Of a DNA stretch of 64,000 bases, positions 4,662 through 62,761 are shown one piece after another. Position numbers and translations under genes: made by a program. The stretch is from the NCBI GenBank assembly GCA_964495685.1, contig CAZBVQ010000002.1, positions 38,790-102,789 of the forward strand, read 5' to 3'. This DNA is from an uncultured Candidatus Saccharibacteria bacterium. GTDB taxonomy: Bacteria; Patescibacteriota; Minisyncoccia; Phycocordibacterales; PALSA-1337. The notes under the pieces are model-generated. The model was not told the DNA's origin. It made no database searches and worked only from the letters and a program-made list of their open reading frames with translations. Within the stretch, counting starts at the first letter, position 1. Every line of letters begins with the position of its first letter.

Positions 4662-7600
4662 TTATTCCTCCTCGACTGAAGGTTTGTTGGTAAGCTCGAC
4701 ATTGAGTGCTAGACCACGAAGTGTCTTCAAGAGCACGTTGAATGACGCCGGCAGATTCGGATTACGAGGACGTTCACCCTTGACGATGGCGTCGAATGTC
4801 TGTGAACGACCGATGATATCGTCTGACTTGACGGTCAAGATTTCGCGGAGCGTATGAGCGGCACCGTGACCCAAGAGTGCCCAGACCTCCATTTCACCGA
4901 AGCGTTGACCACCTCCCTGCGCCTTACCACCGAGTGGCTGCTGGGTGATGAGTGAGTATGGACCGATCGAACGCATGTGGATCTTGTCCTCTACCATGTG
5001 GTGCAGCTTGAGGATATACATGTATCCGACAGCGATGGGCTGATTGAAGTATTCACCTGTACGACCGTCACGAAGCTTCATTTTGCCTGAAGCATCATAC
5101 CCGGCCTTGACGAGTTCGGCTTTGATCTCTTCTTCGGTAGCACCAGCGAACGGCGGGACGATGGCCTGGTAGCCGAGTGTGTGAGCAGCCAAACCGAGGT
5201 GCAATTCGAGGATCTGACCGAGGTTCATACGTGACGGCACACCAAGAGGAGTCAATATAACATCGATCGGTGTACCATCTTCCATGTACGGCATATCCTC
5301 TTCTGGCAAGATACGTGAGATAACACCCTTGTTACCGTGACGACCGGCCATCTTGTCACCGACAGAAATATTACGGACCTGAGCGACCTCGATATAGATA
5401 CGCTTGATAATACCTGATTCGAGCTTGTCACCCTTCTCACGTGAGAAGATTTTGACTGAAATGACACGACCACGCTTGCCGTTTTCCATGCGCTTGGACG
5501 TATCCTTCACGTCGCGAGCTTTCTCGCCGAAGATTGAGCGGAGGAGGCGCTCTTCTGGCGTCAGCTGAGTCTCACCTTTCGGGGAGATCTTACCGACCAG
5601 AATGTCACCGGGACGGACCTCGGCACCGATGCGGACAATACCTTCTTCAGTGAGGTTCTTGAGCTTGGCTTCACCGACGTTCGGAATATCACAGGTCGTG
5701 ACTTCTGGACCGAGCTTGGTATCACGGACGTTGACCACGAACTCTTCGATGTGGACTGAGCTCCACTTGCTATTCTTGACGACACGCTCTGAGAGAATGA
5801 TGGCGTCTTCGTAGTTGTTACCCGACCATGACATGAAGGCAACCAAGGCATTGTGACCGAGAGCTGCTTCACCACGATCTGACGTAGAAGTATCGGCAAG
5901 CACATCACCTTTCTTGACCTTGTCTCCCGGAGAAATGATGGGACGATGATGGAGAGCAGTGAAACCATTGGTACGAGAGAAGAGCACGAGATCGTATTCA
6001 TGCTTCTTGCCCTTCTTGGAGACGAAGATGATCTTGCGAGCGTCGACGTGAGTGACCTCACCGTCTTCCGGAGCAACGATCAGACGGCCTGTGTCGAGGA
6101 CTGCACGCTTCTCGATACCCGTTGCCACGAATGGCGCTTCGGGGACGAGACATGGGGTGGCCTGCTTCAACATGTTCGATCCCATGAGTGCGCGGTTGGC
6201 ATCATCGTGGTTGACGAATGGAATAAGTGAAGTCGCGATCGAGAATGCCTGGTTGGTAGCAACGTCGATATAGTCGACTTCTTTCTTGGCGGCCAGTGCT
6301 GGCTTACCGTTGATACGAACCTCGACTTCATTGACAGTAATAGAACCATCCTTATCGAATGGTGTAGCGGCGTGAGCAATGCGGTAGTTCTCTTCTTCGA
6401 GCGCATTCAAGTACACAATCTCCTTGGTGATCTTGCCATCCTTGACCTTGGCATACGGAGTCTCGATCATGCCGAAATCATTGATGCGGGCATACATGGC
6501 CAAGCGGAGCACCAGACCGATGTTCGGACCTTCTGGTGTGTGGATCGGACAGAGGCGACCGTAGTGAGACGGGTGCACGTCGCGGACTTCGAAGCCGGCA
6601 CGTTCACGTGAAAGACCGCCAGGACCGAGGGCAGTAAGCTGGCGCAAGTTCTCGATTTCGCCCAGGGTGTTGGTCTGCTCCATGAACTGGGAGAGCTGGT
6701 TGGTGGTGAAGAATTCCTTGATACGAGCCTGGAGCGGGCGCGGATAGATGAATGAGACCGGCAGAGTCACGTCTGGCTCAACCGTCGACATCTTGTCTTG
6801 AATGTTGCGCTTCATTTGAGTGAGACCGAGGCGAATACGCTGCTCGAGGAGCTCACCGACATAGCGGACACGGCGTGAACCGAGGTGATCGATATCGTCA
6901 GGCTGCATATCAGGAGTGACCGTCAAGGTGACAATGTGACCAATCGTGGTCGCGATATCGTCGAGAGAGAGGGTGCGGCGTTCGAGCTCCTTGTCTTCCA
7001 TAGACTTACCGAAACGCTTGTTGAAACGGAAACGACCAACGCGAGAGAGGTCATATCGATCTTCTTTGAGGAGAGCTTGCACGAATGAGCGAGCGTTGTC
7101 AGCGGTAGCGAGATCACCATCGCGGAGGCGCTTGTGAATCTCCATATAGGCCTCATCTTTGGTCTTGGCGTGGTCCTTGGCCAAGGTCATCTCGATCACT
7201 TTGCGAGCGTCTGGATTGCCCTTGAAAATATCGAGAATCTTCTCATTGGTCTCTGCGCCGAGGATGCGCAGGAGTGAGGTGACGGGGAATTTGCGCTTGC
7301 GATCGACACGGCAATAGATAGTGCCGTCGGTATCAGTCTCGATCTCCATCCAGACACCACGGGCAGGAATGACCTTGGCGCCAAAATAGTTCTTACCCTT
7401 CACCTCATTGCCAGTGAAGAAAATACCGAATGAACGAGCGAGCTGTGGCACGATGACACGCTCGACACCGTTGATGATGAAGGTACCATGGTCAGTCATG
7501 AGCGGGATCTCGGAGAGCATCATTTCTTGCTCTTTGGTGATGTTCAGGGACTTGTTCTTGAGGGTCACTTTGACCTTGATCTGACCTTCGAAGTTGAGCT

Positions 7601-10669: not shown

Positions 10670-10713
10670 GTCGCCGTATACTAACAGAATGCCTGAAAAT
10701 GCGCAACTCAAAT

Positions 10714-10753
10714 CCTAGGCCGGGCCTAGAAATGATTCTAGGCCCGGCCTAGA
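10714..10753. repeat. two inverted copies of the palindromic element CTAGGCCGGGCCTAG / CTAGGCCCGGCCTAG separated by AAATGATT
   Basis: Read directly. Copy 1 is at about 10717-10731 and copy 2 at 10739-10753. The second copy supplies the TAG stop codon of the cysteine desulfurase gene (10751..10749, minus strand). Confidence 0.9.
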
Positions 10754-11909
10754 AAAAAACGCTTCGAATGGCCTTGGTTGCAGCGCGTATATCCCCTTTG
10801 GTGGTCCATCTACCGAAGGAGAAACGGAGTGAAGTGCCGCTATCCACCTTCATGGCCCTCAATACATATGACTCTTCGGCGTCTCGAAGACACGAACTTT
10901 TGGTCGAACAAGCAATGCCACGAGCATCGAGCTGGAAGAGGAAAAATTCGTTATCAATTCCAGGAATAGATACGTTCGCAATATGAGGAGACTGCATATC
11001 CTCATCACCACCATTGACCTGAATGTCAGGCCGGATCTCTTTGAGCTCATTGATGAACATGTCGCGCAACGTTTTGATACGATCCGTTTCTTCAATCCGC
11101 TCTTCGACTGCCAACGTGACCGCTTTGGCGAATCCAGCAATCCCCGGAACATTCTCAGTACCTGACCTGAGCCCCTTCTCTTGTCCCCCACCGTACGTGG
11201 TAGCTCGAATGGGTATACCCCGCTTCACATAGAGACAACCCATACCGCGAGGACCGTATACTTTGCCCGCATCGAGCGTCAGGAGATCTACCCCGAGCTT
11301 CTCGACCAATACGTCTTGGAATAGAAATGCCTGTGCCGCATCAGTATGAAGCATTGGGTACTTGGATTCTAGGCCGGGCCTAGCATTTCGTTCCTTGCGT
11401 ACGAGATGTGCGACCTCGGCGATCGGTTGGATTGAACCGACTTCATTGTTGACCATCATGATGGATACCAGCACCGTATGTGGCTTGAATGATTTCTTGA
11501 GTTCATTCAAGTCGACGATCCCGTGAATGTCCACAGGAATCTGGGTAACCTCACACCCCCACCCCTCTAGAGCGGCGGTCATCTCTAGAATAGAGGAATG
11601 TTCGATAGCGGAAATGATGACATGTGGTCGCTCGATACCAGCTACCCGAGCGGCCTGAATGACACCGCTCAGTGCTAGATTGTTGGCTTCAGTACCACCA
11701 GAAGTGAAAATAATCTCATCTGGCTGGGCATGTATAGCAGAAGCAACGGATGCACGCGAAGCCGCCACTACTTTCTTGGCGGCAACACCCTCCTTGTATA
11801 AGGAAGATGGGTTTGCGTATGCAGATGCAGCATATACACCAATCTCCTTGGTAACTCGTGGATCGATGGGTGTCAGTGATGCGTAATCGAGATATATGCG
11901 TCGGGCCAT
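10749..11909 (-). CDS. cysteine desulfurase (NifS/IscS family, PLP-dependent)
   Basis: NifS/IscS-type sequence: TSGGTEANN, HTDAAQAF, and a SxHK-like region. The start is set at the internal ATG MARRIYLDYASL. It carries an in-frame palindromic-repeat insertion encoding NARPGLES just before HTDAAQ. Confidence 0.85.
   Translation of the reverse strand: MARRIYLDYASLTPIDPRVTKEIGVYAASAYANPSSLYKEGVAAKKVVAASRASVASAIHAQPDEIIFTSGGTEANNLALSGVIQAARVAGIERPHVIISAIEHSSILEMTAALEGWGCEVTQIPVDIHGIVDLNELKKSFKPHTVLVSIMMVNNEVGSIQPIAEVAHLVRKERNARPGLESKYPMLHTDAAQAFLFQDVLVEKLGVDLLTLDAGKVYGPRGMGCLYVKRGIPIRATTYGGGQEKGLRSGTENVPGIAGFAKAVTLAVEERIEETDRIKTLRDMFINELKEIRPDIQVNGGDEDMQSPHIANVSIPGIDNEFFLFQLDARGIACSTKSSCLRDAEESYVLRAMKVDSGTSLRFSFGRWTTKGDIRAATKAIRSVFF
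11369..11383. repeat. copy of the CTAGGCCGGGCCTAG palindrome inside the cysteine desulfurase CDS, in frame
   Basis: Identical 15-mer with the same flank GATT...CTAGC. On the minus strand it is translated as A-R-P-G-L-E. Confidence 0.9.
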
Positions 11910-12320: not shown

Positions 12321-12836
12321 ATGTTCATTTGTTATATTTTGAGATACACTATGTGCATGTTGAATCTATCCACGAATCCACTACTGATCGGCTTCGTCAT
12401 CTTGGCGGTCGCCACCCTCATCCTCCTTGGTCTCGTCATCTGGATGTACATCCGCATGCGTCGATTCCTGATCGTCGTCGATGCACATAGTATCAGTGAT
12501 TCACTGACACATGTGTCTCATAGTCTCAAGGAGCTCCAGCATTTTCGTGATGACATGGAAGGATATCTCACCGACGTCGAACGTCGTCTACGCAAAAGCA
12601 TACAGTCGGTCCACACGATCCGTTTCAATCCATTCAAAGGTACCGGCGGCGGGGGCAATCAGAGTTTCGCTACGACATTAGTCAATGAAAATGGCGACGG
12701 GGTCATCATTTCGAGTCTCTATTCACGTGACCACGTAAGCGTATTCTCCAAACCTGTCATCAAACATGGTTCTGATTATGAACTCTCCGTAGAGGAACGT
12801 GAATCCTTGGAACATGCCAAAAAAGGCCTAGAATAA
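12321..12836 (+). CDS. DUF4446-like membrane-anchored protein
   Basis: N-terminal transmembrane segment, then RFNPFKGTGGGGNQSFATTLVNENGDGVIISSLYSRDH, which resembles the DUF4446 consensus. Its last codons GGC-CTA-GAA-TAA lie in a half-copy of the palindromic repeat. Confidence 0.55.
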   Translation: MFICYILRYTMCMLNLSTNPLLIGFVILAVATLILLGLVIWMYIRMRRFLIVVDAHSISDSLTHVSHSLKELQHFRDDMEGYLTDVERRLRKSIQSVHTIRFNPFKGTGGGGNQSFATTLVNENGDGVIISSLYSRDHVSVFSKPVIKHGSDYELSVEERESLEHAKKGLE

Positions 12837-26038: not shown

Positions 26039-26165
26039 GATAAGTAGAGGCATATCCCCACACGACATAATTCCTTCCTGACAAGCCGAAAATGTAGCCA
26101 GCGATCAGCGCTTTGAGGCTTGGAAGGAAGGAATTATGTCGTGTGGGGATATGCCTCGATAAGTA
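26039..26165. mobile_element. MITE-like element: 32-bp perfect terminal inverted repeats (GAGGCATATCCCCACACGACATAATTCCTTCC) around a 47-bp core, flanked by 8-bp direct repeats GATAAGTA
   Basis: Arm 1 at 26047-26078, arm 2 at 26126-26157. GATAAGTA at 26039-26046 and 26158-26165 is a TSD-like pair. Confidence 0.45.
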
Positions 26166-26166
26166 T

Positions 26167-26204
26167 CCAGGCCCGGCCTAGAAATATTTCTAGGCCGGGC
26201 CTGG
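26167..26204. repeat. 38-bp perfect palindrome CCAGGCCCGGCCTAGAAATATTTCTAGGCCGGGCCTGG (two inverted repeat units) plus a degenerate tail CTAGGGCCTGG at 26221-26231
   Basis: Read directly. Same family as 10714-10753. Confidence 0.9.
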
Positions 26205-26234
26205 AATCAGAACTTGGAATCTAGGGCCTGGAAC

Positions 26235-27704
26235 CTACCCCACATACCCCGCTCCACGTTCATACAACGTAAGCTGTGTCTGTTTCAAATTGTTGAGAAT
26301 AGACATGATGTACTTCCATGAAGCCATGATTTCATCAGTCGAAGCGAACAATGTCTGATCACCAACGAAGGCGTCATGAATGAGTCGCTCGTAGTCATTG
26401 GGAATCATGTCGAACGAGGCCGCATCACTGTACTTGAATTTGAGCGTCTTGGACTCCGTGGTGAAATCGTAACCTGGTTTCTTGACGAAGAAGCGAACGC
26501 GGATACCCTCATCCGGCTGTATACGGAAGGTCAGAATATTCTGCTGATTGCCGTTGACGCCATCCTTCTGACTTTCTCGTCCGCCATGACCTCGGCGAAG
26601 GTGGATACTTTTTGATTTGGGACTTTCTTTGAAATAAATGTCTACTTCGGCCTTCGTGTCGGCGAGCCCCTTGCCACTTTCGAGATAAAAAGGCACCCCC
26701 TTCCATCGCGGTGAGGCAATATGTGCCTGAATACGGAAATAGGTCTCTGTTTGTGAACTCGGCGAGATGCCTATCTCTTGCATATAACCCATGTACTGAC
26801 CTCGAACGACATGCGTGCCGATAGACCGTGCCGTCATCAGCTTCAATTTCGCCAATACCTTGGCACGTTCCTGACGAATATCACTAGCCTTGAATGAACG
26901 GGGTGGCTCCATCGCGATGATAGCGAGCATCATCAGCATATGATTCTGACCCACGTCCTTGAGTGCACCGATCGGATCGTAGAATGCACCACGTCCTTCC
27001 ATACCATTCTTCTCGAACAGCTTGATGTGGACCTTGTCGATGAATTCCCTGTTCCACAATGGCTCGAACATGGAATTGGCGAAACGAAATGCCGTGATGT
27101 TCTGTAATACCTCCTTCGCCAAATAATGATCGATGCGGAAGATCTGCTCTTCCTTGAAAAGCGCACCGAGTAATTTGTCCAAATGACGGGCCGTCTCACT
27201 ATCACTGCCGAAAGGCTTCTCGATCAGAATACGAGTCCACCCCGTACCATCGTCGCATGATTGGGCCAATCCTGAATGCGCAATATTACTCAAAATTTTC
27301 TCGTACAGGGTCGGCGGAACTGAGAGATGGTACAGCTTGTTGGAGCATTGACCCCATCGATCATCGATGCCTTTCATCTTGGTCGCCAGACGCGCATAGG
27401 CACCCGTGTCATCGAACATGCCTTGTTCGTAGACCATATGATCCAAGAAATGTTTGATGTCCTCCTCTTTGTATTGACCCGGTTTCACATTCATGCGACC
27501 ACGAATGTACTCACGAAATTCTTCACGACTGAAAACGCGCCGCGAAAAACCGATAATAGCAAATCGTTGTGGTAACAGCTGCTTTGCGTAGAGATTGAGC
27601 AGTGCAGGAATGAGTTTGCGCGCAGCCAAATCACCGGTGATACCGAATATCACGAAAATAGTCGGATGAAGTGCCGTTATTGATGAAGTACGAGTCTGTA
27701 TCAT
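26235..27704 (-). CDS. zwf: glucose-6-phosphate 1-dehydrogenase
   Basis: GITGDLAARKLIPAL NADP-binding motif, RIDHYLAKE, and a G6PD-like C-terminal domain. Confidence 0.9.
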   Translation of the reverse strand: MIQTRTSSITALHPTIFVIFGITGDLAARKLIPALLNLYAKQLLPQRFAIIGFSRRVFSREEFREYIRGRMNVKPGQYKEEDIKHFLDHMVYEQGMFDDTGAYARLATKMKGIDDRWGQCSNKLYHLSVPPTLYEKILSNIAHSGLAQSCDDGTGWTRILIEKPFGSDSETARHLDKLLGALFKEEQIFRIDHYLAKEVLQNITAFRFANSMFEPLWNREFIDKVHIKLFEKNGMEGRGAFYDPIGALKDVGQNHMLMMLAIIAMEPPRSFKASDIRQERAKVLAKLKLMTARSIGTHVVRGQYMGYMQEIGISPSSQTETYFRIQAHIASPRWKGVPFYLESGKGLADTKAEVDIYFKESPKSKSIHLRRGHGGRESQKDGVNGNQQNILTFRIQPDEGIRVRFFVKKPGYDFTTESKTLKFKYSDAASFDMIPNDYERLIHDAFVGDQTLFASTDEIMASWKYIMSILNNLKQTQLTLYERGAGYVG

Positions 27705-27932: not shown

Positions 27933-28016
27933 ATGAGCGTCGCCCGTGCCTCTCGACTACGGCGTATGGAAACATATCCTAGCGCGGAGTTATCGCTTCT
28001 GCAATAGTCACATTTG

Positions 28017-28087
28017 TCGGGGCGCCGAGAATCGAACTCGGACCTCACGCACCCGAAGCGTGTATACTACCACTATACTACGCCCCG
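28017..28087 (-). tRNA. tRNA-Pro (anticodon CGG)
   Basis: Acceptor CGGGGCG / CGCCCCG. Anticodon arm CACGC-UUCGGGU-GCGUG. T arm CCGAG-UUCGAUU-CUCGG. Unusual D arm GUAUA-GUGGUAG-UAUAC. Confidence 0.7.
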
Positions 28088-28090
28088 ATG

Positions 28091-28163
28091 TGGACCATAG
28101 CGGACTCGAACCGCTCACCTCACCCATGCCATGGGTGCGCTCTACCAGATGAGCTAATGGCCC
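28091..28163 (-). tRNA. tRNA-Ala (anticodon GGC)
   Basis: G3:U70 pair present. Anticodon arm CACCC-AUGGCAU-GGGUG. D arm GCUC / GAGC. T arm AGCGG-UUCGAGU-CCGCU. Confidence 0.75.
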
Positions 28164-28316
28164 TTCGTTGTAACAAGGCCAATCTAACACATATTTGAGT
28201 AATTTTCAAAAATAACGTAAACTTCGAAACGTACTCCTTGTAGATTCATGAGATGTGATACTCGGCACCACGTGGGCTTCGCCCGCCGAAGCTCCGAGCT
28301 TTGTGAGGAGCGAAGG

Positions 28317-28387
28317 CGGGCTGTAGTATAGTGGTAGTATACATCCATGGGGTGGATGCGGTCCGGGTTCGATTCCCGGCAGCCCGA
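28317..28387 (+). tRNA. tRNA-Pro (anticodon GGG)
   Basis: Acceptor CGGGCUG / CAGCCCG. Same unusual D arm as tRNA-Pro(CGG). Anticodon arm CAUCC-AUGGGGU-GGAUG. T arm CCGGG-UUCGAUU-CCCGG. Confidence 0.7.
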
Positions 28388-28403
28388 CAATAATACGCCC
28401 GAG

Positions 28404-28477
28404 GCACCCTTAGCTCAGTTGGCTAGAGCGCACCCTTCACACGGGTGAGGTCATAGGTTCGAGCCCTATAGGGTGCA
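28404..28477 (+). tRNA. tRNA-Val (anticodon CAC)
   Basis: Acceptor GCACCCU / AGGGUGC. D arm GCUC-AGUUGGCUA-GAGC. Anticodon arm CACCC-UUCACAC-GGGUG. T arm AUAGG-UUCGAGC-CCUAU. Confidence 0.8.
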
Positions 28478-28561
28478 CAGATATTAGACAACCACAAACC
28501 AATTCAAGACAGTATTATGGTATACTATCTTCACGGTTCGTTTATCAACTAATCAACTCCC

Positions 28562-28786
28562 ATGAAGACAACACACGTTATCGCCTTCATTCTGACGATC
28601 ATCGGTGGCCTCAATTGGCTCCTCGTTGCATTCAACTGGAACCTTGTCGATGCCATCTTCGGCGTCGGAAGTACTGGTTCGATGATCGTCTACATTCTTG
28701 TTGGTCTGTCAGCCATCTGGCTCATCATCGATCACAAGAAGAGCTGTAGCTGCTGCGTCAAAGACAGCACTCCGTCTCAGATGTAG
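28562..28786 (+). CDS. DUF378-family small membrane protein
   Basis: IIGGLNWLLVAFNWNLVDAIFG...IVYILVGLSAIW fits the DUF378 pattern. Confidence 0.6.
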   Translation: MKTTHVIAFILTIIGGLNWLLVAFNWNLVDAIFGVGSTGSMIVYILVGLSAIWLIIDHKKSCSCCVKDSTPSQM

Positions 28787-28804
28787 TCACTGCTACATAT
28801 GTAC

Positions 28805-28831
28805 AAAAAACCACCTTGCGGTGGTTTTTTG
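28805..28831 (+). terminator. Rho-independent terminator (AAAAAACCACC-TTGC-GGTGGTTTTTT)
   Basis: Perfect stem with flanking A and T runs after the DUF378 gene. Confidence 0.65.
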
Positions 28832-29006
28832 TTTGCTATTTCTGGTCACATCCGCAATCGCAGGTCTTGCCTGAGTGAGGATGATTGCATGACGAGCATA
28901 CAGGTGCATCTGCCATATGTGTAATAAAACATGAGGGCTGATAAAGCGACCTTTGGCATATTATTATACCGCGCTACACATAGAAGTGGAAGTGGGCCTA
29001 ACATCA

Positions 29007-29036
29007 AATAAAATAAGCCCTGATGGGCTTATTTTC
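29007..29036 (-). terminator. hairpin AAATAAGCCC-TGAT-GGGCTTATTT just downstream of tRNA-Ala(UGC)
   Basis: Perfect 10-bp stem flanked by A and T runs. It could act in either direction. Confidence 0.55.
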
Positions 29037-29041
29037 ATGTG

Positions 29042-29114
29042 TGGACCCGAGAGGAATCGAACCTCCGACCTTTGCTTTGCAAAAGCACTGCTCTACCAAC
29101 TGAGCTACGGGCCC
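29042..29114 (-). tRNA. tRNA-Ala (anticodon UGC)
   Basis: Acceptor GGGCCCG / CGGGUCC with G3:U70. Anticodon loop UUUGCAA. T arm GGAGG-UUCGAUU-CCUCU. Confidence 0.8.
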
Positions 29115-35187: not shown

Positions 35188-35247
35188 AATGGGCGGAGAA
35201 TATCACGAAAACCGCAAAAAATCAACCGGAGTATCCCTACCCTCGTT

Positions 35248-35262
35248 CTAGGCCGGGCCTAG
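35248..35262. repeat. copy of CTAGGCCGGGCCTAG between the uvrA start and the response-regulator stop
   Basis: Identical 15-mer with the TTCTAGG...CTAGAATCC flank. Confidence 0.9.
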
Positions 35263-35269
35263 AATCCTC

Positions 35270-38090: not shown

Positions 38091-38729
38091 TTATTTTTTT
38101 AACGCACTAAATTTATACTCCCACCCCGGCTGCCACTTGAACTTCGTGATCACCAACGTCTCTAGCGGCACCCCATTCACCACATGCTCAATACCATACT
38201 GCGTCGCACGATGACCGATCACCATGACACGCTTGCCTTGATAGTTCTTGATCAAATCCTCCAAGAATGACCTCATGCGCGCCGTCGTCTGCGTGTAGCT
38301 CTCACCGTTTGGAAATGGTGTCTCGATGCGCTTCGGCTTCTCCACATCCACCTGCTCGCTTGGCGCCTGCGTCAGATCGCCATAGTTACATTCACGAAGC
38401 CGGGCGTCCTGAATAATCGGCCATTTGGAACCAAAACCAATCTCGGCACTCTTGTATGCCCGCTGTAGATCCGAGCAGAAAATAGCGTCGAAGTGGTCTT
38501 CCTTGTAACGTTCTCCCATTTCCTTGGATTGCTGAATACCGAGAGGCGACAAGGCTACGTCATTGTGGCCAGATGACAAATGGGCTTCGTTATCAAATGT
38601 GGTGCCGTGAGCTTCGAAGATGAGGGTGAGTATGGGTGTAGGATAGTGTGATTTGAGGCTTATTTCTAGGCCTGTTTTTTGATATTGACAATATACTATA
38701 TTATATGTTAACATGTTATTGGCGGTCAA
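38091..38729 (-). CDS. histidine phosphatase (phosphoglycerate-mutase-like) family protein
   Basis: HGTT...SPLG...GHRATQ pattern, with the catalytic RHG replaced by AHG. It has an unusual 30-aa N-terminal extension that contains a half-copy (TCTAGGCCTG, 38655-38664) of the palindromic repeat. Confidence 0.6.
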   Translation of the reverse strand: MTANNMLTYNIVYCQYQKTGLEISLKSHYPTPILTLIFEAHGTTFDNEAHLSSGHNDVALSPLGIQQSKEMGERYKEDHFDAIFCSDLQRAYKSAEIGFGSKWPIIQDARLRECNYGDLTQAPSEQVDVEKPKRIETPFPNGESYTQTTARMRSFLEDLIKNYQGKRVMVIGHRATQYGIEHVVNGVPLETLVITKFKWQPGWEYKFSALKK

Positions 38730-47518: not shown

Positions 47519-47533
47519 CTAGGCCGGGCCTAG
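47519..47533. repeat. copy of CTAGGCCGGGCCTAG in the 25-nt spacer between rpiB and rpe
   Basis: Identical 15-mer, 5 nt from the rpiB stop and about 7 nt from the rpe start. Confidence 0.9.
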
Positions 47534-48483: not shown

Positions 48484-48562
48484 TTAATTATTACACTAAC
48501 CTCCCCGCTCTGATCACCTGCCCCACCACTGTATACATGTACCCATCTCATTATCACGTTAG
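48484..48562 (-). promoter_or_regulatory. conserved leader element, copy 1 (in gene orientation: ...GTATAC..GTGG.GCA.GTGATCA.AGCGGGGAG.TTA...TAATAATTAA then ATG)
   Basis: About 80% identical to 49469-49547 over roughly 50 nt. Contains TGATCA and GTATAC palindromes. Confidence 0.5.
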
Positions 48563-48566
48563 AACT

Positions 48567-49466
48567 TTATCTCGTAATGGTGAAATACTTATCACTCGTA
48601 TCGACAATGCCTCTTCCTCCTCCATAATTTGTCACCCCAATTTCTATTTTATAGTTACCTGGAGAAAGGCTGAATCTGTCCTCGGGCAAACTCGATGTCT
48701 TACCTATACACATAGTAGTCGCAGGAGTAAAAATAAAGACTCCTTGTTTCGCTGAAACTTCTCCATCAACAGGATCACAGAAATCAGAGAAGTCTGTCCC
48801 CGATCTAAGTCTGATAGCAACTTTGGCGTCATTAGATAAACCCGATGATGTCCACTTGATCGATTTTGATTCAGACATTTTCCAGATCTCTCCGCCATTA
48901 GGAGAAATAATGGTTATGGAAGGGACTGAAACAGGCTGTGTCACGGGACTATTAGTCGTCTCACTTACTTTAGGTTGAGCTGAGATTGTAAACAGCTCGC
49001 TCTTATTCCCTACCCCCACAATTTCTCCAGTTGAATAAAGACCTATGCGATATTTACCAGGCTGTACAACTCCTTGAACTTCGTCGCCTTGAATAATCCA
49101 GCTAAACGAGCCTGAGTTTGGCGATCCTTGAGAAATTTTTCGAACCGTATTGCCATTCTGGTCAATAAGATTAATGCCAATCCCTGCCGTATTAATGTCC
49201 ATTCCCAATCCACTGGAATTCCAATTAATCTTCAAATTGTCTCCAATTTTATATGTCTCTCCGTTTTTCGGCGAAGTAATCATAATTGAAGGCGAAGCAG
49301 CTGGTTGTGATGTTACTGAGGCATCATCAGTTTGATTAACTTGGGGTTGCTGTTGGTCAATACTTACTGATTTTTTAATAAATGCAAAATAACCGACAGC
49401 AACTAAAAGAACAATTATAAGTACAATCAACCAAATATTTACTGATCCCTTTTGTGTATTCTTCAT
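48567..49466 (-). CDS. secreted/anchored protein with two tandem beta-sandwich-like repeats
   Basis: N-terminal TM segment. Repeat units ITSPKNGETYKIGDNLKINWNSSG...GKYRIGLYS...ELFTI and IISPNGGEIWKMSESKSIKWTSSG...GNYKIEIGV...KYFTI. Confidence 0.5.
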   Translation of the reverse strand: MKNTQKGSVNIWLIVLIIVLLVAVGYFAFIKKSVSIDQQQPQVNQTDDASVTSQPAASPSIMITSPKNGETYKIGDNLKINWNSSGLGMDINTAGIGINLIDQNGNTVRKISQGSPNSGSFSWIIQGDEVQGVVQPGKYRIGLYSTGEIVGVGNKSELFTISAQPKVSETTNSPVTQPVSVPSITIISPNGGEIWKMSESKSIKWTSSGLSNDAKVAIRLRSGTDFSDFCDPVDGEVSAKQGVFIFTPATTMCIGKTSSLPEDRFSLSPGNYKIEIGVTNYGGGRGIVDTSDKYFTITR

Positions 49467-49468
49467 AA

Positions 49469-49547
49469 ATTTAAATTATTAAATTAATCTCCCCGCCTTG
49501 ATCACATGCTCCACAAGCGTATACGTATACCCCATTTCGTTGTTATA
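49469..49547 (-). promoter_or_regulatory. conserved leader element, copy 2
   Basis: See copy 1. It lies immediately upstream of the ATG at 49466. Confidence 0.5.
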
Positions 49548-49768
49548 CCATGCGGGTAATTTTTCCCTGTTTTTTGTCATATTGCAGAAATTATATCATG
49601 AGTTCAATCTTTAAATCTCCGTTCGCCCGTCTTTTGAAACAGCAAAAATTTGTAGTCTCAAAAGGCGAGCGAGAGATAAAATATGCTGTCAATGTTCTTG
49701 CTTTACATGATAAACAAACACTTGTTTAATAGCAAGCGCTGAAATATGGCCTGAACACTGCTTAATTC

Positions 49769-50740
49769 CTAGCAATGAACAGCTCTTGTTCTTGGAATCT
49801 TGTATTTCTTGTGTCTCTGGTTTCTTGGTACATTTCTGAAGGAATCGTAACGACGCTGGAGATCGGGACCGGTCATCATCGTATAAATCATCGAACTCTC
49901 AAGACTTGAGTGACCGAGAATATTTGAAACGTCTGAATTTGATCCGCCCTTGTTCACAATATCTCGACCCATATAATGTCGCATTGAGTGCGCATTCATT
50001 GTTGGTATACCAGCACGGTTAGAATTAGTGCGGAGCATTTCAGCCACGTTGAAGGTGGTCATTCTTTTTCCTCTCACATCATTCTGACCACACTTTGAAA
50101 CTGTAACAAATAGCGCATCGAGGTCTTCAAAGCTAAATAGTTTATATAAATGTTTTCTCTTGCTTACCCACTTTTTGAGGAGAGCATTTGTGGTTGGTGT
50201 CCAAAAAATTTCACGAATCGGTCTACGACCGCGTGATTTTTCTGTGCGTATGAGCGCTTTGCGATTATCCAAATCAAGATCGCCAACATTTAAAGAAACG
50301 ATCTCGCCGTTTCGAGCGCCCGTATCCCAGAGTAATGATATGACTGCCCTGTTTCTAATGTGATGAGGATTATTACCCTTTGGAATAGAGTTAAGTAATT
50401 TTTTGAAACCTTGTTCAGTTGCAATTCGAGGTATGTTGTACTCTTTCTTGGGGGTTGGAATAAGAAATTCATTAATAACTTTAAAGCCTTGAAGGTTATA
50501 AAATTCAAAGAATTTCTTGAGGGCCAAGGTGACAATACGAATGCCGTTTCTTTTCCAGCCGAGCTCTGTCATCAAATTCAAATAATCCATCACGTGCTGA
50601 ATAGTGATGTTTTCTATATGCGGATTTTTGAGATAGAGACAAAAGATGCGAAGCACTTTGTCGTATCGTTTGACCGTATGACCGGTCACTTTGATCTGTC
50701 TCCAACCGCTGAATTGGTCGATAGCGTCTTTGAATAGCAT
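49769..50740 (-). CDS. tyrosine-type site-specific recombinase/integrase
   Basis: C-terminal catalytic region AHSMRHYMG...LGHSSLESSMIYT (R..H..R..Y residues) and an N-terminal SAM-like domain. Confidence 0.85.
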   Translation of the reverse strand: MLFKDAIDQFSGWRQIKVTGHTVKRYDKVLRIFCLYLKNPHIENITIQHVMDYLNLMTELGWKRNGIRIVTLALKKFFEFYNLQGFKVINEFLIPTPKKEYNIPRIATEQGFKKLLNSIPKGNNPHHIRNRAVISLLWDTGARNGEIVSLNVGDLDLDNRKALIRTEKSRGRRPIREIFWTPTTNALLKKWVSKRKHLYKLFSFEDLDALFVTVSKCGQNDVRGKRMTTFNVAEMLRTNSNRAGIPTMNAHSMRHYMGRDIVNKGGSNSDVSNILGHSSLESSMIYTMMTGPDLQRRYDSFRNVPRNQRHKKYKIPRTRAVHC

Positions 50741-51154
50741 ACATGGCCAACCAAAAAGCCCACTCGATGCTACTCAAAGTGGACTTCTGGTGGCCGTCTG
50801 CTCATAGAGCTTATTGCCATTCCCTAGCTAGGGAGACATAACCTCGCGGTCACATCATCAACATTTTCCCCTATCCTTTAGGAAATAGCAAGGTCATGTT
50901 TTGATCAAAAGTCCATCGGTAGCATCAGGTCATTCTGACCCTGATCCCTTACGGGGCGATGGAGCATATTCGGTTGTCACTACATCCTAGTGTAGTGCCT
51001 TTCCATTGTCAAGAAGGATATTTCATTGGATAGTAATATGGAGAGCAGAACATCAAAATAGTCAATTAAAATAAGGCTTTTTTGAGATATATAAAGAAAA
51101 GTCACATCACCTTTTAAGCAATGCGACTGTGTTTTTCGGAAAATGATCTATTTG

Positions 51155-52153
51155 TCAGAGCTTTTCCCGAATCTGCTCCAAAAAGGCAGCGATGCTCATA
51201 TCCAAGGCCGGTAAATGCCCTTGAGCGTCAATTTCGATAGGTAATGATACCCTCGGATTCTTGCTCAAAAGCTCACTTATCGTCATTTTGGACCCCATAA
51301 GGCTGAAGATTTCGATGCTGATATCAAGGCAAAGCCTCGACAAGTCTCGTGCTCCTTCAGTCGGCAGACTTGCCCACTCCTCGATCCTGCCGAATGGAAG
51401 GATGTATGGATAAGCACAACTGAAACCGTCTGGGGTTCGGACCGGCATCAAACTTTGCGATGTCTGCTCACCGATGACACGTCCACAGTTCGGACTGAAT
51501 GGGATGAGGTCGTGATCGGGAATCCAATCAATGAGATCTTTGATCGGATGCACCATCACAATCTCGCCGGTAAATACTTCCTGAATAGTTGATCGTGAGC
51601 CATTACAACAGAATCCGAGAATGATCGCCGTAACCTTGATACTTCTGCTTTCAAGCTCATGGAGGACAAACTTGAGTGTGCCTCCAGTGAATGCACCGTC
51701 TTCAATTAGCACGATTGAACGACCGGCGATCTTCTCGGTTAGCTCATCAAGCTGTGTCCCCAGCGGATCGAATCCTGGACGCGGACCATACCCTATCATC
51801 ACTCCGTCTGAATTAAACAACCGATTGATGTTGAGGAGTAAACCTTCGCTTTTTGGATTTGAGTCTGCGATCTCGAAGCAGGTGCTGAGAACTGCTTGCT
51901 GACTGAGGTCGGTGATACGACCATCGACTTGTTCCCAGATTTTTCGCCGAAGCTCATTCATCTCGATTGTGTCGATCGTGATGCTTGGCAGAGCTCGTTG
52001 TATCTTTTTAAACAAACCGATGTGGAAGCGCTCAAACAATAAATCATCCGGCTGTGGGACAGCAAAGCCTTTTGCACGGAATGACTGAAGCCGACTGGCA
52101 ACATCGTAGGTAACCACATAGGTTCCACGACGATCCGAATGGATTTCTGACAT
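51155..52153 (-). CDS. phosphoribosyltransferase (PRTase)-domain protein of unknown specificity
   Basis: PRPP-binding motif SIVLIEDGAFTGGTL in the middle of a 332 aa protein. The flanking regions match no family I recognise. Confidence 0.5.
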   Translation of the reverse strand: MSEIHSDRRGTYVVTYDVASRLQSFRAKGFAVPQPDDLLFERFHIGLFKKIQRALPSITIDTIEMNELRRKIWEQVDGRITDLSQQAVLSTCFEIADSNPKSEGLLLNINRLFNSDGVMIGYGPRPGFDPLGTQLDELTEKIAGRSIVLIEDGAFTGGTLKFVLHELESRSIKVTAIILGFCCNGSRSTIQEVFTGEIVMVHPIKDLIDWIPDHDLIPFSPNCGRVIGEQTSQSLMPVRTPDGFSCAYPYILPFGRIEEWASLPTEGARDLSRLCLDISIEIFSLMGSKMTISELLSKNPRVSLPIEIDAQGHLPALDMSIAAFLEQIREKL

Positions 52154-52235
52154 GGAAACCTCCTATGGTTGAATTGTTTATGGAAAAGAACTGATTGAAA
52201 TCAGTTCTCAGTGTATCTCTATATCAATGAATTAG

Positions 52236-52559
52236 CTAATTATTCCCCTCATCCTTCATTCGATCGATGAGCATTTTGTATCCGCCACAGCCTTCTTTGA
52301 GCCAACGATTAATTTTGGTGATTGTCACGGGAGACTCGCCTGACTCCTCTTGAATCTGAGAAAAAGGAACGCCTGCATCAAGCTTCTTGGCAACCTCCCA
52401 GCGCATGGCAAATTCTCGGAGATCACGCTCACTCATCAGGTCACGGAAGAATGCTTTGAGTTCATCCTCGTTTTTGAGCGACAAAAAAGCCTTGATCAAA
52501 TCGGGAGATTTTTGTTGTATCTCAGCCCATATTCCGTTTTTTTCTTCATCAGGAATCAT
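52236..52559 (-). CDS. TrpR-like YerC/YecD family DNA-binding protein
   Basis: FFRDLMSERDLREFAMRWEVAKKL...GESPVTITKINRWLKEGCGGY is close to the YerC/YecD consensus. Confidence 0.75.
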   Translation of the reverse strand: MIPDEEKNGIWAEIQQKSPDLIKAFLSLKNEDELKAFFRDLMSERDLREFAMRWEVAKKLDAGVPFSQIQEESGESPVTITKINRWLKEGCGGYKMLIDRMKDEGNN

Positions 52560-52577
52560 ATTTAATAAATTATAACA

Positions 52578-53330
52578 TTACTTCCCTTTCCAGTGAACCA
52601 CTCGATTTTCGATAAACATCATTATTTTGTTCAATACAAATCCGATGACACCAGTCATGAGTATAGCTGCGTACATATCAGCTGTTTGGTACACAAGTTG
52701 AGCATCAATAATACGTTTTCCAAGACCTGCTTCAGTACCGATAAACATTTCAGTAACGATGACGATTATGAGGGAGAGTGAGATCGCGACACGGAAGCCC
52801 GAAAAGATTTGTGGCAATGCTTCAGGAAAAATGACCTTCCGGAAAAGTTCAAATCCTTTCACTTTCATTGTTTTGGCAACACGCACACGTAACTCTTTGC
52901 CGAGGTGTACTCCGTACATTGAGTTAATAAGGATCACCAGACCAGCTCCCCATGCAGTGACGGCAAATTTAGCCTGATCGCCAATTCCAAATACAAGAAG
53001 AAATAGAGGAAACAATGCTGTTGTCGGAATGCCTCGAAAAAACTCAACAGTGAATTCAAGAGCATTGTAAATCTTACTTGAATAGCCCATGAGAAGTCCG
53101 AGTGGTACTCCAATAATTGCCGCAACAGCAAAGCCAACCAGAACACGATATAGTGTGTGCCCTATGTCATTCAACATTGTTCCATTTTGGATTGAATCAA
53201 TAAGGTGGATAAATACATCATATGGAGATGCTAGGAATAGAGGACTGACAAGTTGTAAATATGAAATTACCCACCAGAGGCAGAGTAGAATTATCGGTAT
53301 CAGAACGTAATATAATTTCTTATTTTTCAT
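52578..53330 (-). CDS. ABC transporter permease (nitrate/sulfonate/taurine/ThiX type)
   Basis: Six TM segments and a binding-protein-dependent transport motif (ALNSMYG...). Confidence 0.85.
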   Translation of the reverse strand: MKNKKLYYVLIPIILLCLWWVISYLQLVSPLFLASPYDVFIHLIDSIQNGTMLNDIGHTLYRVLVGFAVAAIIGVPLGLLMGYSSKIYNALEFTVEFFRGIPTTALFPLFLLVFGIGDQAKFAVTAWGAGLVILINSMYGVHLGKELRVRVAKTMKVKGFELFRKVIFPEALPQIFSGFRVAISLSLIIVIVTEMFIGTEAGLGKRIIDAQLVYQTADMYAAILMTGVIGFVLNKIMMFIENRVVHWKGK

Positions 53331-54072
53331 ATTCGAAAGTATTTAGAATTGCATTACGAAGCTCGGTAAATTCAGGACTTGAAAGCATATCGAGGGTTCT
53401 TGGGCGTGGAAGTTTTACCTCAAAAATCTTTTTTATACTCGCGGGGCGAGGAGAAAGTACTACTACTTTATCGGCCAGAAAAATTGCCTCGTCTATATCA
53501 TGACTTACAAATAAAGTAGTTATCTTTTTCTCTTGCCAAATATCGAGAAGCTCCAATTCCATCTTTCGCGTGGTTGAATAATCAAGAGCAGAAAATGGCT
53601 CATCCATAATCAGAATATCTGGGTCATAGGCAATAGAGCGACATATAGAAACAAGCTGACGTTGACCGCCAGAGAGTTCGTAGACAAACCTATCTTTTGA
53701 GTGAAGTAGACCCACCTTGTTCAATAAGTGCTCAGCGATTTTTTGCTGCTTATCCTTATTGACTCTCGCAATCTCGAGTGGAAAAACAATATTTTCCAAA
53801 ACTGTCCGCCAAGGGAATAGGCTCTCGTTATAATTCTGAAATACAAAACCCACTTGAGCATCTTTAGGATTTTTGCCGCTTACCTTTACTTCACCTGATT
53901 CAGGGATTTCAATTCCAGCAACAATATTGAGTAGAGTTGTTTTACCTGATCCATTCGGGCCGAAAACAGTTACGAATTCACCTTTATTCACCTCAAGGTC
54001 AATGCCGTCAATAACTCTGGTATCACCAGAATCTTTTTTAAAGGTTTTTGCTATTCCGGCAAGTGAAATCAT
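53320..54072 (-). CDS. ABC transporter ATP-binding protein
   Basis: GPNGSGKTTL Walker A, LSGGQRQLVSICRS signature, ILIMDEPFSALD Walker B. Confidence 0.9.
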   Translation of the reverse strand: MISLAGIAKTFKKDSGDTRVIDGIDLEVNKGEFVTVFGPNGSGKTTLLNIVAGIEIPESGEVKVSGKNPKDAQVGFVFQNYNESLFPWRTVLENIVFPLEIARVNKDKQQKIAEHLLNKVGLLHSKDRFVYELSGGQRQLVSICRSIAYDPDILIMDEPFSALDYSTTRKMELELLDIWQEKKITTLFVSHDIDEAIFLADKVVVLSPRPASIKKIFEVKLPRPRTLDMLSSPEFTELRNAILNTFEYEK

Positions 54073-54078
54073 TACAGT

Positions 54079-55035
54079 CTATTTGTAATACGCATTGGTC
54101 AAATCTGGTTTTGATGTGAACTCTCCAGAGGCGACTAAAATGTCAAGTAATTTAGCAACAAGAGTTTTATCTATCTGCTGCGAATTTCTAAAGTAAGTCA
54201 TCCCGAGAACATCAACTACTTTCTGATCTAGCTTGAAAAGTGTCCTCGTCATATCCCTTACGTCTTTATCATTTGTATGGAGATAATCGAAAGCCCGATC
54301 AAAAGCATTTACAACTTTCTTAGCCTCACGAGGATGATTATTCACAAATTGAGTGCTTACGAGCGCTACCCCTAATGGACTGTGCTCTAATTGTTCAGAA
54401 TAGACTGAACCATAAATCTTCCTTATTCCACCACTTGTAAGTGCGATAGATATTGTAGGTTCATATGTGAATAAGGCGTCAATTGAACCTGCTGTAAGCG
54501 CAGTGAGGTGTTGTGGTGGTGGTAATTGTACAAATTGGATTGTGGAAGAATCTATGCCCTTTTCCTTAAGAAAAAGTTTGAACATATTTGAAGCACTCGT
54601 GCCTGGAAATACCCCAATCTTTTTGCCCTTCAAATCCTCGAGAGTCTTAATGGTAGAGTTTTCTTTTACCAAAAGGGAGTCAAACGGCACATCGCTCGTA
54701 ATATCAGTTAGAGCGATAATTTTCATTTTGCCAGGATCAACCATTTCAGCATTCAGATATGGAAGTATAGATATTTCAGGAGTGAGATCTATGTCTCCCC
54801 GAGCAAGCGCATCAACAATTTGATTTGAGGTCTGAAGTTGTGTGGCTTGAACAGTGATACCCTGATCTTCAAAAAACTTTTTCTGTTGAGCTATTTCTAA
54901 AGGAAGTTGGCTGGCTGTTATAGGTAGATATCCAATTTTTACCACATAGTCTGAGGGTTTATTTGAGCTTCCGATCCGAACAGCTACTAAAGCCAACACT
55001 ACTACGATTCCTATTATCCAAAATGATTTTTTCAT
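54079..55035 (-). CDS. ABC substrate-binding protein, NMT1/THI5/SsuA-like (paralogue 1)
   Basis: Signal peptide, then IGYLPITASQLPL. The C-terminal SKPDLTNAYYK is shared with the paralogue at 56931. Confidence 0.8.
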   Translation of the reverse strand: MKKSFWIIGIVVVLALVAVRIGSSNKPSDYVVKIGYLPITASQLPLEIAQQKKFFEDQGITVQATQLQTSNQIVDALARGDIDLTPEISILPYLNAEMVDPGKMKIIALTDITSDVPFDSLLVKENSTIKTLEDLKGKKIGVFPGTSASNMFKLFLKEKGIDSSTIQFVQLPPPQHLTALTAGSIDALFTYEPTISIALTSGGIRKIYGSVYSEQLEHSPLGVALVSTQFVNNHPREAKKVVNAFDRAFDYLHTNDKDVRDMTRTLFKLDQKVVDVLGMTYFRNSQQIDKTLVAKLLDILVASGEFTSKPDLTNAYYK

Positions 55036-55165
55036 GCTAATAAAATTAATGTTTTTTGATAAAATCTGAATTCTAAAGGCTTGCAACATTCTACCACAAA
55101 TGATGCCCCGTGTGTAGTTTTTTTAGGATTTTTGGACTCTAATCAAAAGAAGGACAATTAGAATA

Positions 55166-55864
55166 CTATTGCATAGCACTGTCCTTACCTAGAATCGCCT
55201 TATTTAAATACATGAAAGGAATGTTCACCAACCCGACCAACCACTTGATTGCTGTTTGTCCGATTATAAGAGGCATGATTGGTAATGTACCCAGAAATGC
55301 TATTGGAATAAATATCAAACTATCCAGAAGTAATGCAGGTATAGAACTGAATACATTTCTAGACCACAAATGCTTACCATTGGTAAATTTCTTGAACCAT
55401 GAATACACATAGGCATCGAAGTTTTCGGTAATAAGAAATGCTATCCAGCTTGCAATTGTAATTCTTGGAACTAAATTGAAGATCTGCTCCCATGATCCCT
55501 GAAGTGTCCAAAATGGTGCCGCAGGAAATTTGACTCCAAGCCAGAAAAAGAACATCATCGCTATCTGAGATACAAAAGCGATCATAATCATCTTAGAGAC
55601 TTCCCTTCTCCCAAATTTTTCATTCACTATGTCAGTGAAGAGATATGTAATAGAAAAAACAAGAACCCCACTTGGCCCGTAGAATGCACCAAACCCGAGA
55701 TCGAAAGCGGAAATCTTTGCAGCCAAAACTTGTGCAACCAACACAAATGTCACATACAATCCAATAAGTAAATCAGATCTATTGTATTTTCGGGCATACC
55801 AGCTTCCGAGAAGTGTAAAACTGGTAATACCCACAATCCAGATTATTAGTAGATATATGCTCAT
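55166..55864 (-). CDS. queuosine-precursor transporter YhhQ (DUF165) family
   Basis: VFSITYLFTDIVNEKFGRREVSKMIMIAFVSQIAMMFFFW matches the YhhQ core. Multi-TM. Confidence 0.7.
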   Translation of the reverse strand: MSIYLLIIWIVGITSFTLLGSWYARKYNRSDLLIGLYVTFVLVAQVLAAKISAFDLGFGAFYGPSGVLVFSITYLFTDIVNEKFGRREVSKMIMIAFVSQIAMMFFFWLGVKFPAAPFWTLQGSWEQIFNLVPRITIASWIAFLITENFDAYVYSWFKKFTNGKHLWSRNVFSSIPALLLDSLIFIPIAFLGTLPIMPLIIGQTAIKWLVGLVNIPFMYLNKAILGKDSAMQ

Positions 55865-55871
55865 ATGCTGT

Positions 55872-56591: not shown

Positions 56592-56597
56592 GATCGT

Positions 56598-56918
56598 TTA
56601 GTCTTCTATCCAAACCTGTGCTGGGCGATGAGCATCAGAATGCTTTATATCTATGAATATTTTTAGATATTTCGGTTTAATCGATTCTTTCACTTGAGAA
56701 AATACTTCATGCGCCAGTTCTTCAGCTGTAATTTTATTTCTTGCAATCTCATTAACCGCTCGCTCAGCATCAACATACTCAAGTGCTCTTTTTTTGGGAT
56801 GATATTCAATGACAACATCTCCTGAAAATTCCTTGTCAGTGACAGAGCAAATAGCCTTAAAGGGTATGAATATCTTTGTGCCGCTAATCTTATAGCCCAA
56901 TGGTATTGTCCCGATCAT
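56598..56918 (-). CDS. QueF-like T-fold protein (possible preQ0 reductase homologue, divergent)
   Basis: Parallels unimodular QueF: CSVTDKE vs CPKTGQPD, VVIEYHP vs IEYIP, KPKYLKIF vs DPRYIEVW. It lacks the ESKSLKLY motif. Context is next to a YhhQ-family gene. Confidence 0.35.
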   Translation of the reverse strand: MIGTIPLGYKISGTKIFIPFKAICSVTDKEFSGDVVIEYHPKKRALEYVDAERAVNEIARNKITAEELAHEVFSQVKESIKPKYLKIFIDIKHSDAHRPAQVWIED

Positions 56919-56930
56919 TGTTTTTCCAAT

Positions 56931-57890: not shown

Positions 57891-57943
57891 AAAAGTTAGT
57901 AATAAATCTATGGCTCTAGGGCCAATCTATATAATTTGTTATA

Positions 57944-59364: not shown

Positions 59365-59365
59365 G

Positions 59366-60247: not shown

Positions 60248-60257
60248 ATATTACTTA

Positions 60258-62709: not shown

Positions 62710-62761
62710 CTATCCGCCATATCTCCTATAGCCGATTGTAGCGGATTATAGCGGATTCGAA

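Follow-up and report, generated by a model that had tools for sequence, protein, structure and literature searches.

The palindrome family and its loci

In a 64,000-nt stretch of contig CAZBVQ010000002.1 (hereafter the window, meaning the whole stretch at its full length), a short palindrome recurs beside genes that were identified by domain matches: rpiB and rpe (LacAB_rpiB and Ribul_P_3_epim), a response-regulator gene and uvrA (response regulator and UvrA), zwf and mraZ (G6PD and MraZ), and a cysteine desulfurase gene and rpsP (Aminotran_5 and ribosomal protein S16). All window genes adjoining copies are on the minus strand. The palindrome, CTAGGCCSGGCCTAG, is a 15-mer of 7-1-7 build in which the central S base is the only asymmetric base, and it was analyzed as a candidate repetitive extragenic palindromic (REP) sequence, occurring both as single units and as inverted doublets of the kind called REPINs (REP doublets forming hairpins).

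Exact copies were located at 10715-10729, 10738-10752, 11369-11383, 35248-35262 and 47519-47533 (n = 5, against 0.00 expected from 100 dinucleotide-preserving shuffles of the window). When up to three mismatches were allowed, 7 matches were found against 0.5 expected, the two extra ones being one-mismatch copies at 26167-26181 (CCAGG...) and 26190-26204 (...CCTGG). The core of the unit was the top repeated 11-mer and 13-mer within the window, and its over-representation held although CTAG was three-fold under-represented there (77 vs. 247 expected from base composition). CTAG avoidance applied to the whole window, and about one-sixth of all CTAG sites sat within REP units. The flanking 9 kb to the left (extension L152) added two diverged copies, and over the window and these 9 kb the dispersed, near-identical copies exceeded chance, as is expected of REPs. 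Genome-wide, the family might comprise some 60-100 loci, a guess made by extrapolation.

An earlier note on this DNA had described the repeated 15-bp palindrome. The repeat proved real, as five exact and two one-mismatch copies, with the first two coordinates displaced by 1-2 nt, and the note's guesses at the flanking genes were borne out. The ATTC...GAAT flank that it proposed was seen in some copies, where it reads GATTC...GAATC, and the consensus flank was just TT-core-AA. Features that it had overlooked were the in-frame position of the 11369 copy inside a gene, a deleted unit at 26221-26231, and half-sites at 12825-12833 and 38664-38672, all described below. Identical copies were found in independent assemblies from several sequencing runs, which rules out an assembly artefact, and the dispersed arrangement of the copies rules out clustered regularly interspaced short palindromic repeats (CRISPR) or a tandem repeat. 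An Rfam search of the window returned no family at the elements and seven tRNAs as its only matches. Five tRNA genes (Pro-CGG, Ala-GGC, Pro-GGG, Val-CAC and Ala-TGC) form a cluster on both strands at 28016-29114; the single tRNAs are one for Glu at 20052 and one for Leu at 36096, which closely precedes the response-regulator gene on its upstream side.

The cysteine desulfurase locus carries a REPIN-like doublet (10713-10754) of two exact inverted units, 10715-10729 with G and 10738-10752 with C at the centre, with 8 nt between them. Its arms are perfect over 17 nt and enclose a 4-nt loop, and it lies upstream of rpsP (as called at 116 aa), at a distance of 45 nt from the start. The cysteine desulfurase gene takes its final codon, TTC for Phe, and its TAG stop from the 10738 unit (TTC TAG GCC... 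in mRNA sense), and the earlier claim that a copy supplies this stop codon was thereby borne out. A single exact unit at 11369-11383 lies inside the coding sequence (CDS) of the same gene (10749-11909, minus strand), where it is read as A-R-P-G-L-E-S, its sole stop-free frame, and falls in a hypervariable loop whose length and sequence differ freely among cysteine desulfurase homologues.

A second REPIN-like doublet (26166-26205) lies between zwf and mraZ and consists of the units 26167-26181 (CCAGGCCCGGCCTAG) and 26190-26204 (CTAGGCCGGGCCTGG), with 20-nt arms and no loop. It had been given as a perfect 38-bp palindrome of two inverted units; the palindrome is perfect and the two units are inverted, at a length of 40 bp and with each unit one base off the consensus. 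In both pairs (10715/10738 and 26167/26190) the units are 23 bp apart from start to start and inverted, as judged by the asymmetric central base. Beside the second doublet, a degenerate unit CTAGGGCCTGG (26221-26231), read directly from the sequence, equals the CTAGGCCGGGCCTGG unit minus 4 central nt; in mRNA sense it begins 3 nt past the zwf TAG stop (26235-26237), and the doublet follows 15 nt beyond. The doublet also adjoins an inverted repeat at 26047-26157, upstream of mraZ, with 46-nt arms (91% complementary) and a 19-nt loop. This repeat does not recur elsewhere in the window, and public assemblies break at it, with contigs beginning at window positions 26122, 26076 and 26060.

The remaining full units in the window are single. 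The one at 35246-35264, TTCTAGGCCGGGCCTAGAA, is perfectly palindromic over 19 bp (core 35248-35262) and folds at -10 to -12 kcal/mol; 7 nt separate it from the preceding TAG stop of the response-regulator gene, and 60 nt from the uvrA start that follows. An exact unit at 47519-47533 occupies the rpiB-rpe spacer, beginning 3 nt after the rpiB TAA stop and ending 7 nt before the rpe ATG in mRNA sense. Of the spacers described as very tight, only that of rpiB/rpe (25 nt) thus is so; those of the response regulator/uvrA (82 nt) and zwf/mraZ (305 nt) are wider. In the left extension, a one-mismatch unit begins 2 nt after a TAA stop, and a three-mismatch unit, ACAGGCCGGGCCTGG (L152:16775), lies in a 311-nt spacer between convergent genes, with its end 3 nt from the BipA stop. 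Possible remnant half-units of low confidence are GGCCTAGAA at 12825-12833, which is followed by TAA and encodes the C-terminal G-L-E of a DUF4446 gene, and TTCTAGGCC at 38664-38672, followed by a T-run; these may be REP remnants or chance matches (2 seen vs. about 0.5 expected, a rough estimate).

The unit is a 15-19-bp palindrome with a predicted stem of 6-9 bp and a 3-nt loop, and so has the hairpin described for REPs (stem 5-13 bp, short loop; PMC3733652), at the short end. Both doublets are inverted pairs with a short spacer that form one long hairpin, as REPINs do. The predicted RNA fold was -42.9 kcal/mol (z = -8.6) for the 10713-10754 doublet, which received a terminator-like score on the minus strand, and -45.8 kcal/mol (z = -5.5) for the 26166-26205 doublet, which was not terminator-like. 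Generic intrinsic terminators were rejected as a description of the family, the first doublet being the only element to pass the terminator scan and the 26-kb doublet failing it. Single units in mRNA sense folded no better than shuffled sequence (z = -0.1 to -1.8) and were followed by A-rich sequence on both strands. In mRNA sense their central base was C in 3 and G in 1, too few for an orientation to be read. Across about 74 kb, 2 doublets were counted vs. 5 units that are single or degenerate, including the one next to the 26-kb doublet, a small sample.

Stop codons, strains and relatives

Placement of the copies was strict. At six of the seven loci the units are extragenic and lie at gene 3' ends, between co-directional or convergent neighbors, and at the seventh the unit is intragenic and in frame. 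At each of the six intergenic loci (four in the window, two in L152), a unit supplies a stop codon or lies 0-7 nt from one, and the units hug the stops although the spacers reach 82-311 nt. Under uniform placement within the spacers, the joint chance of six loci lying within 7 nt of a stop was about 1e-6 (our own arithmetic from the coordinates). On either strand the unit carries TAG in two of the three reading frames, and the third frame reads ...RPGL.... Three left flanks have GAA(A)TAATT in common, TAA stop included; this stop may have been brought by the element or may have been targeted by it. REPs lie mostly downstream of ORFs (open reading frames), often supply TAG stops, also occur in frame within genes, and form closely spaced dimers (PMC3733652).

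The host belongs to a sparsely sampled, Paceibacteria-like lineage of the Patescibacteria (candidate phyla radiation, CPR), as judged from homologues that are mostly 57-65% identical and from public contigs of this organism of up to 521 kb. The best homologues of the cysteine desulfurase were from metagenome-assembled genomes (MAGs) of Parcubacteria, Paceibacteria and Patescibacteria (57-65% identity), and the single closer relative (L011) was 71% identical. In this closest available relative, both copies were missing from the cysteine desulfurase locus, so that the empty orthologous site that the earlier note had proposed to look for was found. There, the conserved TTGCGCATTTT of the rpsP leader, which in the window lies beyond the doublet, comes immediately after the stop codon; its loop is 3 residues shorter, of unrelated sequence and without the motif; and the motif was absent from the whole 1.7-kb L011 contig. 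Comparison of the two sequences therefore identifies both copies at this locus as lineage-specific additions.

Among strains 95-100% identical, all examined copies were common to all, with no presence/absence polymorphism, and thus no very recent movement was seen. The 47519 element was kept in strains 95-97% identical, and as the surrounding 180 bp held only 2 substitutions this was uninformative on constraint. In a set of 185,579 species-representative genomes, the flanked 17-mer TCTAGGCCSGGCCTAGA gave just 4 unrelated single matches, as expected by chance; on these matches the family is not widespread, the organism and its own family lying outside that set. A scan of viral contigs gave 8 single motif matches, which were likewise taken as chance.

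The final 15 kb of the window (about 48500-64000) form a low-GC block (39-42% vs. 48-50%) with a tyrosine integrase gene at 49769-50740 on the minus strand. Past the right end (L016) the block continues, with LysM, Amidase_2 and large hypothetical genes. Strain L020 lacks it, and in strain L019 its place is taken by another insert that likewise bears an integrase. Given its low G+C, its integrase and its absence from another strain, the block is probably an integrated element or prophage beside the pentose-phosphate operon. No REP copies were found in the block or in its 10-kb extension.

Transposase genes flanked by the same palindrome

A metagenome scan with a 16-mer form of the motif returned 104 loci, about 90 of which were chance single matches in unrelated, mostly high-GC contigs. 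Three others (L062, L067 and L097) were dropped as family members because the 15-mer lay inside unrelated longer or tandem repeats. At the remaining multi-copy loci (L061 and the L034 group, plus L075 on the L061 contig), Y1_Tnp (PF01797) genes were flanked by the motif or by close variants. The same 15-mer thus flanks a gene of the type expected for a REP-associated tyrosine transposase (RAYT) in other bacteria, which answers part of the check that the earlier note had suggested; in the organism itself, a search of about 84 kb revealed no RAYT gene.

The L061/L075 contig, ERZ1048872 NODE-212, is from the SUP05 clade (37-39% G+C). Its 214-aa gene at 2260-2904 on the minus strand matched PF01797 Y1_Tnp at E = 9.6e-9, above the Pfam cut-off. 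One CTAGGCCCGGCCTAG|CTAGGCCGGGCCTAG doublet of zero spacing lies 1 nt upstream of the ATG of this gene, and another overlaps its stop; a third on this contig (L075) lies between convergent genes. Homologues of the L061 protein were SUP05/Thioglobus and Bathymodiolus-symbiont proteins, many of them named 'REP element-mobilizing transposase RayT' by the Joint Genome Institute (JGI). In the complete genome of the Bathymodiolus septemdierum thioautotrophic symbiont (AP013042.1), a 71%-identical orthologue in the same gene neighborhood is flanked by doublets of CTAAGCCSGGCTTAG, which differs from the window unit by a compensatory G:C to A:T change under which the hairpin is preserved. Five CTAAGCCSGGCTTAG doublets occur in 20 kb of AP013042.1, all in or overlapping intergenic spacers. 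This pattern, in AP013042.1 and L061, is what a REPIN family and its RAYT usually show when they co-evolve. On the minus strand of NODE-212 (1458-2279), the longest ORF of a DUF2927 gene begins in a REP doublet, giving MKISISRPGLARPGLG... with RPGL twice; probably either the annotated start is wrong or the REPIN is translated.

A second Y1 lineage (L034, L049, L052, L094, L098, L106 and L115) encodes a protein 33-36% identical to the SUP05 type, and its clade, the L052 group, includes a 'Patescibacteria group bacterium' transposase. Genes of this group are flanked by 15-bp 7-1-7 palindromes, namely CCGGGCTSAGCCCGG, CCGGACTSAGTCCGG and, in L052, CTAGGCCCGGCCTAG itself, often as 29-30-bp doublets. 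For the L061, L052 and P0123 proteins, membership of the Y1 fold family was accompanied by a conserved locus and REP flanks, with PF01797 scores above the cut-off, and conserved synteny linked L061 to AP013042.1 and L052 to L141. All hits of the database searches made with such proteins also carried a precomputed PF01797 match. L052, an activated-sludge MAG of Patescibacteria-like appearance, also carries a G+C-rich cluster of 15-bp palindromes (6411-6457) in frame (...SPGRTRARLSPARAEPGGRPGGGG...) within a UvrD/PcrA-like CDS (4709-6691, minus strand), a second example of REP-like units tolerated within a CDS. In the Patescibacteria-like contigs L141 (1285-3772) and L144 (1065-4823), genes resembling a diversity-generating retroelement (RVT_1 reverse transcriptase, bAvd and Lcl_C targets) adjoin the RAYT gene.

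Interpretation and comparison with known systems

The copies are best read as REP sequences which, as single units and inverted doublets (REPINs), constitute a non-autonomous family of miniature mobile elements within a Patescibacteria genome, a reading to which a probability of roughly 0.7 was assigned. The earlier REP/RPE-like classification was supported for REP; likeness to the Rickettsia palindromic element (RPE) extended only to the in-frame CDS copy. As no RAYT gene turned up in about 84 kb of this organism, RAYT-dependent mobility is here only inferred, and likewise any effect on RNA.

Several observations weigh against a REP family. The units, at 15-19 bp, are at the lower end of the sizes given for REPs; the window holds more singles than doublets; and the CTAG end (or CCAG/CTGG) is base-paired in the stem, in place of the unpaired GTAG or CGTC of known REPs. 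The empty site came from one relative only. The RAYT-like proteins scored 31-44 bits on the NCBIfam RAYT equivalog model (cut-off 80) and matched no solved structure in sequence searches. Neither Y1_Tnp nor RAYT was detected in the window and its extensions of about 20 kb by tblastn, profile hidden Markov models or phmmer, with ORFs called in six frames; and in database searches seeded with the SUP05-type and Patescibacteria-type proteins, none of the top 120 hits of each was tied to this organism, nor did either of two further candidates, known solely from Logan and ENA, belong to it.

The absence of a nearby transposase would also suit copies that are orphan relics, immobile and decaying, whose RAYT has since been lost or which are remnants of a horizontally acquired system. 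Decayed units do exist (the CCAGG/CCTGG variants, the 4-nt deletion, the 3-mismatch unit at L152:16775 and the half-sites), no presence/absence polymorphism was seen down to 95% identity, and REPtrons have been lost in some strains (PMC3733652). However, 5 of the 8 full-length units are still identical over 15 nt, and the transposase search covered about 10% of a genome of more than 0.6 Mb, so that the orphan state is considered possible, as a minority reading. Selection for function, without a transposase, is a more doubtful source of the units, as host RNA elements for termination, mRNA stabilization or coupling, and was judged unlikely. The unit within 7 nt of the stop at all six intergenic loci, long spacers included, would suit such a role, as would the strong folding of the doublets (-43 and -46 kcal/mol; z = -8.6 and -5.5), the terminator-like 10713-10754 element and the CTGG variants, which still pair, as G-U, in RNA. 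Liang, Rudd and Deutscher reportedly found in 2015 that E. coli REPs within about 15 nt of the stop reduce translation. Five identical 15-mers with shared flanks would nevertheless need a copying process; moreover, the singles fold no better than shuffled sequence, a T-rich tail occurs at only one doublet, and the other examined units were not terminator-like for their minus-strand genes. One copy is within a CDS, and the same sequence flanks transposase genes in unrelated bacteria. A host RNA role is compatible with secondary co-option of a REP, and was treated as such.

Recognition of the palindrome by a host protein (a global regulator, a nucleoid protein or a DNA-uptake receptor) would account for the perfect 15-bp dyad and its very strong conservation, and the absence of copies from the low-GC island at 48.5-64 kb and its 10-kb extension is what a 'self' signature would give. 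That absence over 26 kb was only weakly significant (about 2.7 copies expected, P ~0.07, our own arithmetic), and the copies sit at gene 3' ends and in a CDS rather than in promoters. Known uptake sequences are roughly ten-fold denser than one locus per 10 kb, which is about the density observed here. The inverted doublets and the centrally deleted copy are typical of REPINs, and an association with RAYT genes in three lineages is not predicted for a protein site, which was accordingly considered very improbable. A DNA uptake sequence in the strict sense (a non-palindromic 9-12-mer, about 1 per kb and common in CDSs) was rejected: the unit is palindromic, occurs at about 1 locus per 10 kb and is almost all extragenic.

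Under the preferred REP reading, the 15-19-nt unit would fold on single-stranded DNA into a 6-9-bp G+C-rich hairpin, which a RAYT-type Y1 HUH transposase, encoded elsewhere in the genome now or formerly, would recognize and cut, dispersing units and doublets. Insertions near gene 3' ends would re-terminate the ORF, and those in the third frame would read through as ...RPGL...; with TAG in two of three frames, survivors would be those that close an ORF or are translated in frame. The copies left in a densely coding genome would then abut or supply stops, or sit in frame in tolerant protein loops. Once fixed and transcribed in operons, singles would be small mRNA hairpins behind the stop and doublets very stable ones, and such hairpins would probably shield the mRNA segment upstream of them against 3' exonucleases, or dampen termination and re-initiation.

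RAYTs are single-copy, vertically inherited genes flanked by REPINs (PMC5581495, PMC3116915). The identical 15-mer in Patescibacteria and SUP05 could reflect cross-phylum transfer of a RAYT/REPIN system, or a hairpin specificity so constrained that the same REP arose twice, with copies then recruited as obligatory 'stop-codon hairpins' that fix where mRNA segments begin and end in operons without ordinary terminators; this combined proposal is speculative and rather improbable. If true, the cross-phylum or convergent origin would challenge strictly vertical REPIN-RAYT inheritance, and would give the CPR a repeat-based post-transcriptional control.

Nearly all work on REP/REPIN-RAYT systems has concerned Proteobacteria. 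The presence of a REP family in a genome of well below 1 Mb would mean that miniature mobile DNA is tolerated or used even by bacteria that are extremely streamlined and probably symbiotic, and would suggest how an element survives in such a genome, by sitting on stops or reading through in frame. In practical terms, the palindromes break metagenome assemblies at the mraZ locus, can misplace annotated gene ends and starts, and offer a lineage-specific marker. The compensatory pair CTAGGCC/CTAAGCC beside orthologous RAYT genes amounts to a natural experiment on how the transposase recognizes its hairpin.

Among known systems, the SUP05 REP/REPIN-RAYT system shares the 15-mer CTAGGCCSGGCCTAG, identical in NODE-212, and has CTAAGCCSGGCTTAG in AP013042.1. 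Inverted doublets forming 30-40-bp perfect palindromes, short spacers, overlaps with stops and the read-through frame RPGL are also common to both. The SUP05 units abut and were seen as doublets alone, whereas the window units are 8 nt apart and singles predominate; a RAYT gene with flanking doublets is present there, and none was found in the 84 kb here. The hosts belong to different phyla and differ in G+C (37-39% vs. 48%). Palindromes of the Patescibacteria-like MAGs (L140, which is GCA_019428825.1; L141; and the L052 group) have the same 7-1-7 build with C-N-R-G ends (CCGGGCTSAGCCCGG, CCGGACTSAGTCCGG, CTAGGCCCGGCCTAG) and form doublets of 29-30 bp, and the L052 copies are similarly in frame, within the UvrD/PcrA CDS. 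They differ in that most have another core, and in that the RAYT gene is at a conserved position next to UvrD or LepA.

The first nine bases of the unit (CTAGGCCGG) resemble the head of the E. coli REP (GTAGGCCGG). With the classical GTAG REPs and bacterial interspersed mosaic elements (BIMEs) of Enterobacteria and Pseudomonas, and their RAYTs (Nunvar 2010; Bertels and Rainey 2011, PMC3116915; Ton-Hoang 2012; Di Nocera 2013, PMC3733652), the family shares short G+C-rich hairpins downstream of ORFs, in co-directional or convergent spacers, head-to-head or tail-to-tail dimers, termini that supply TAG, occasional in-frame copies and an association with Y1 transposases. Classical REPs are imperfect 20-40-bp palindromes with an unpaired GTAG head, whereas the units here are perfect over 15-19 bp with a 1-3-nt loop and a base-paired CTAG, in a Patescibacteria host. 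The family falls outside the GTAG and CGTC super-families as defined in PMC3733652, sharing only xTAG. RPEs of Rickettsia are likewise palindromic repeats able to sit in frame in a CDS, as the 11369 copy does, but measure about 100-150 bp, bear a CGTC tag and lack a transposase of their own (PMC3733652); the present element, with its xTAG, spans 15-40 bp and is about ten times shorter. Membership of the RPE was rejected on this length, the lack of a CGTC tag and the presence of only 1 of about 9 copies in a CDS. Literature searches found no REP or RAYT paper on Patescibacteria/CPR. The points of note here are a REP family in a CPR genome, its very strict placement at stop codons, and the same REP sequence in two phyla.

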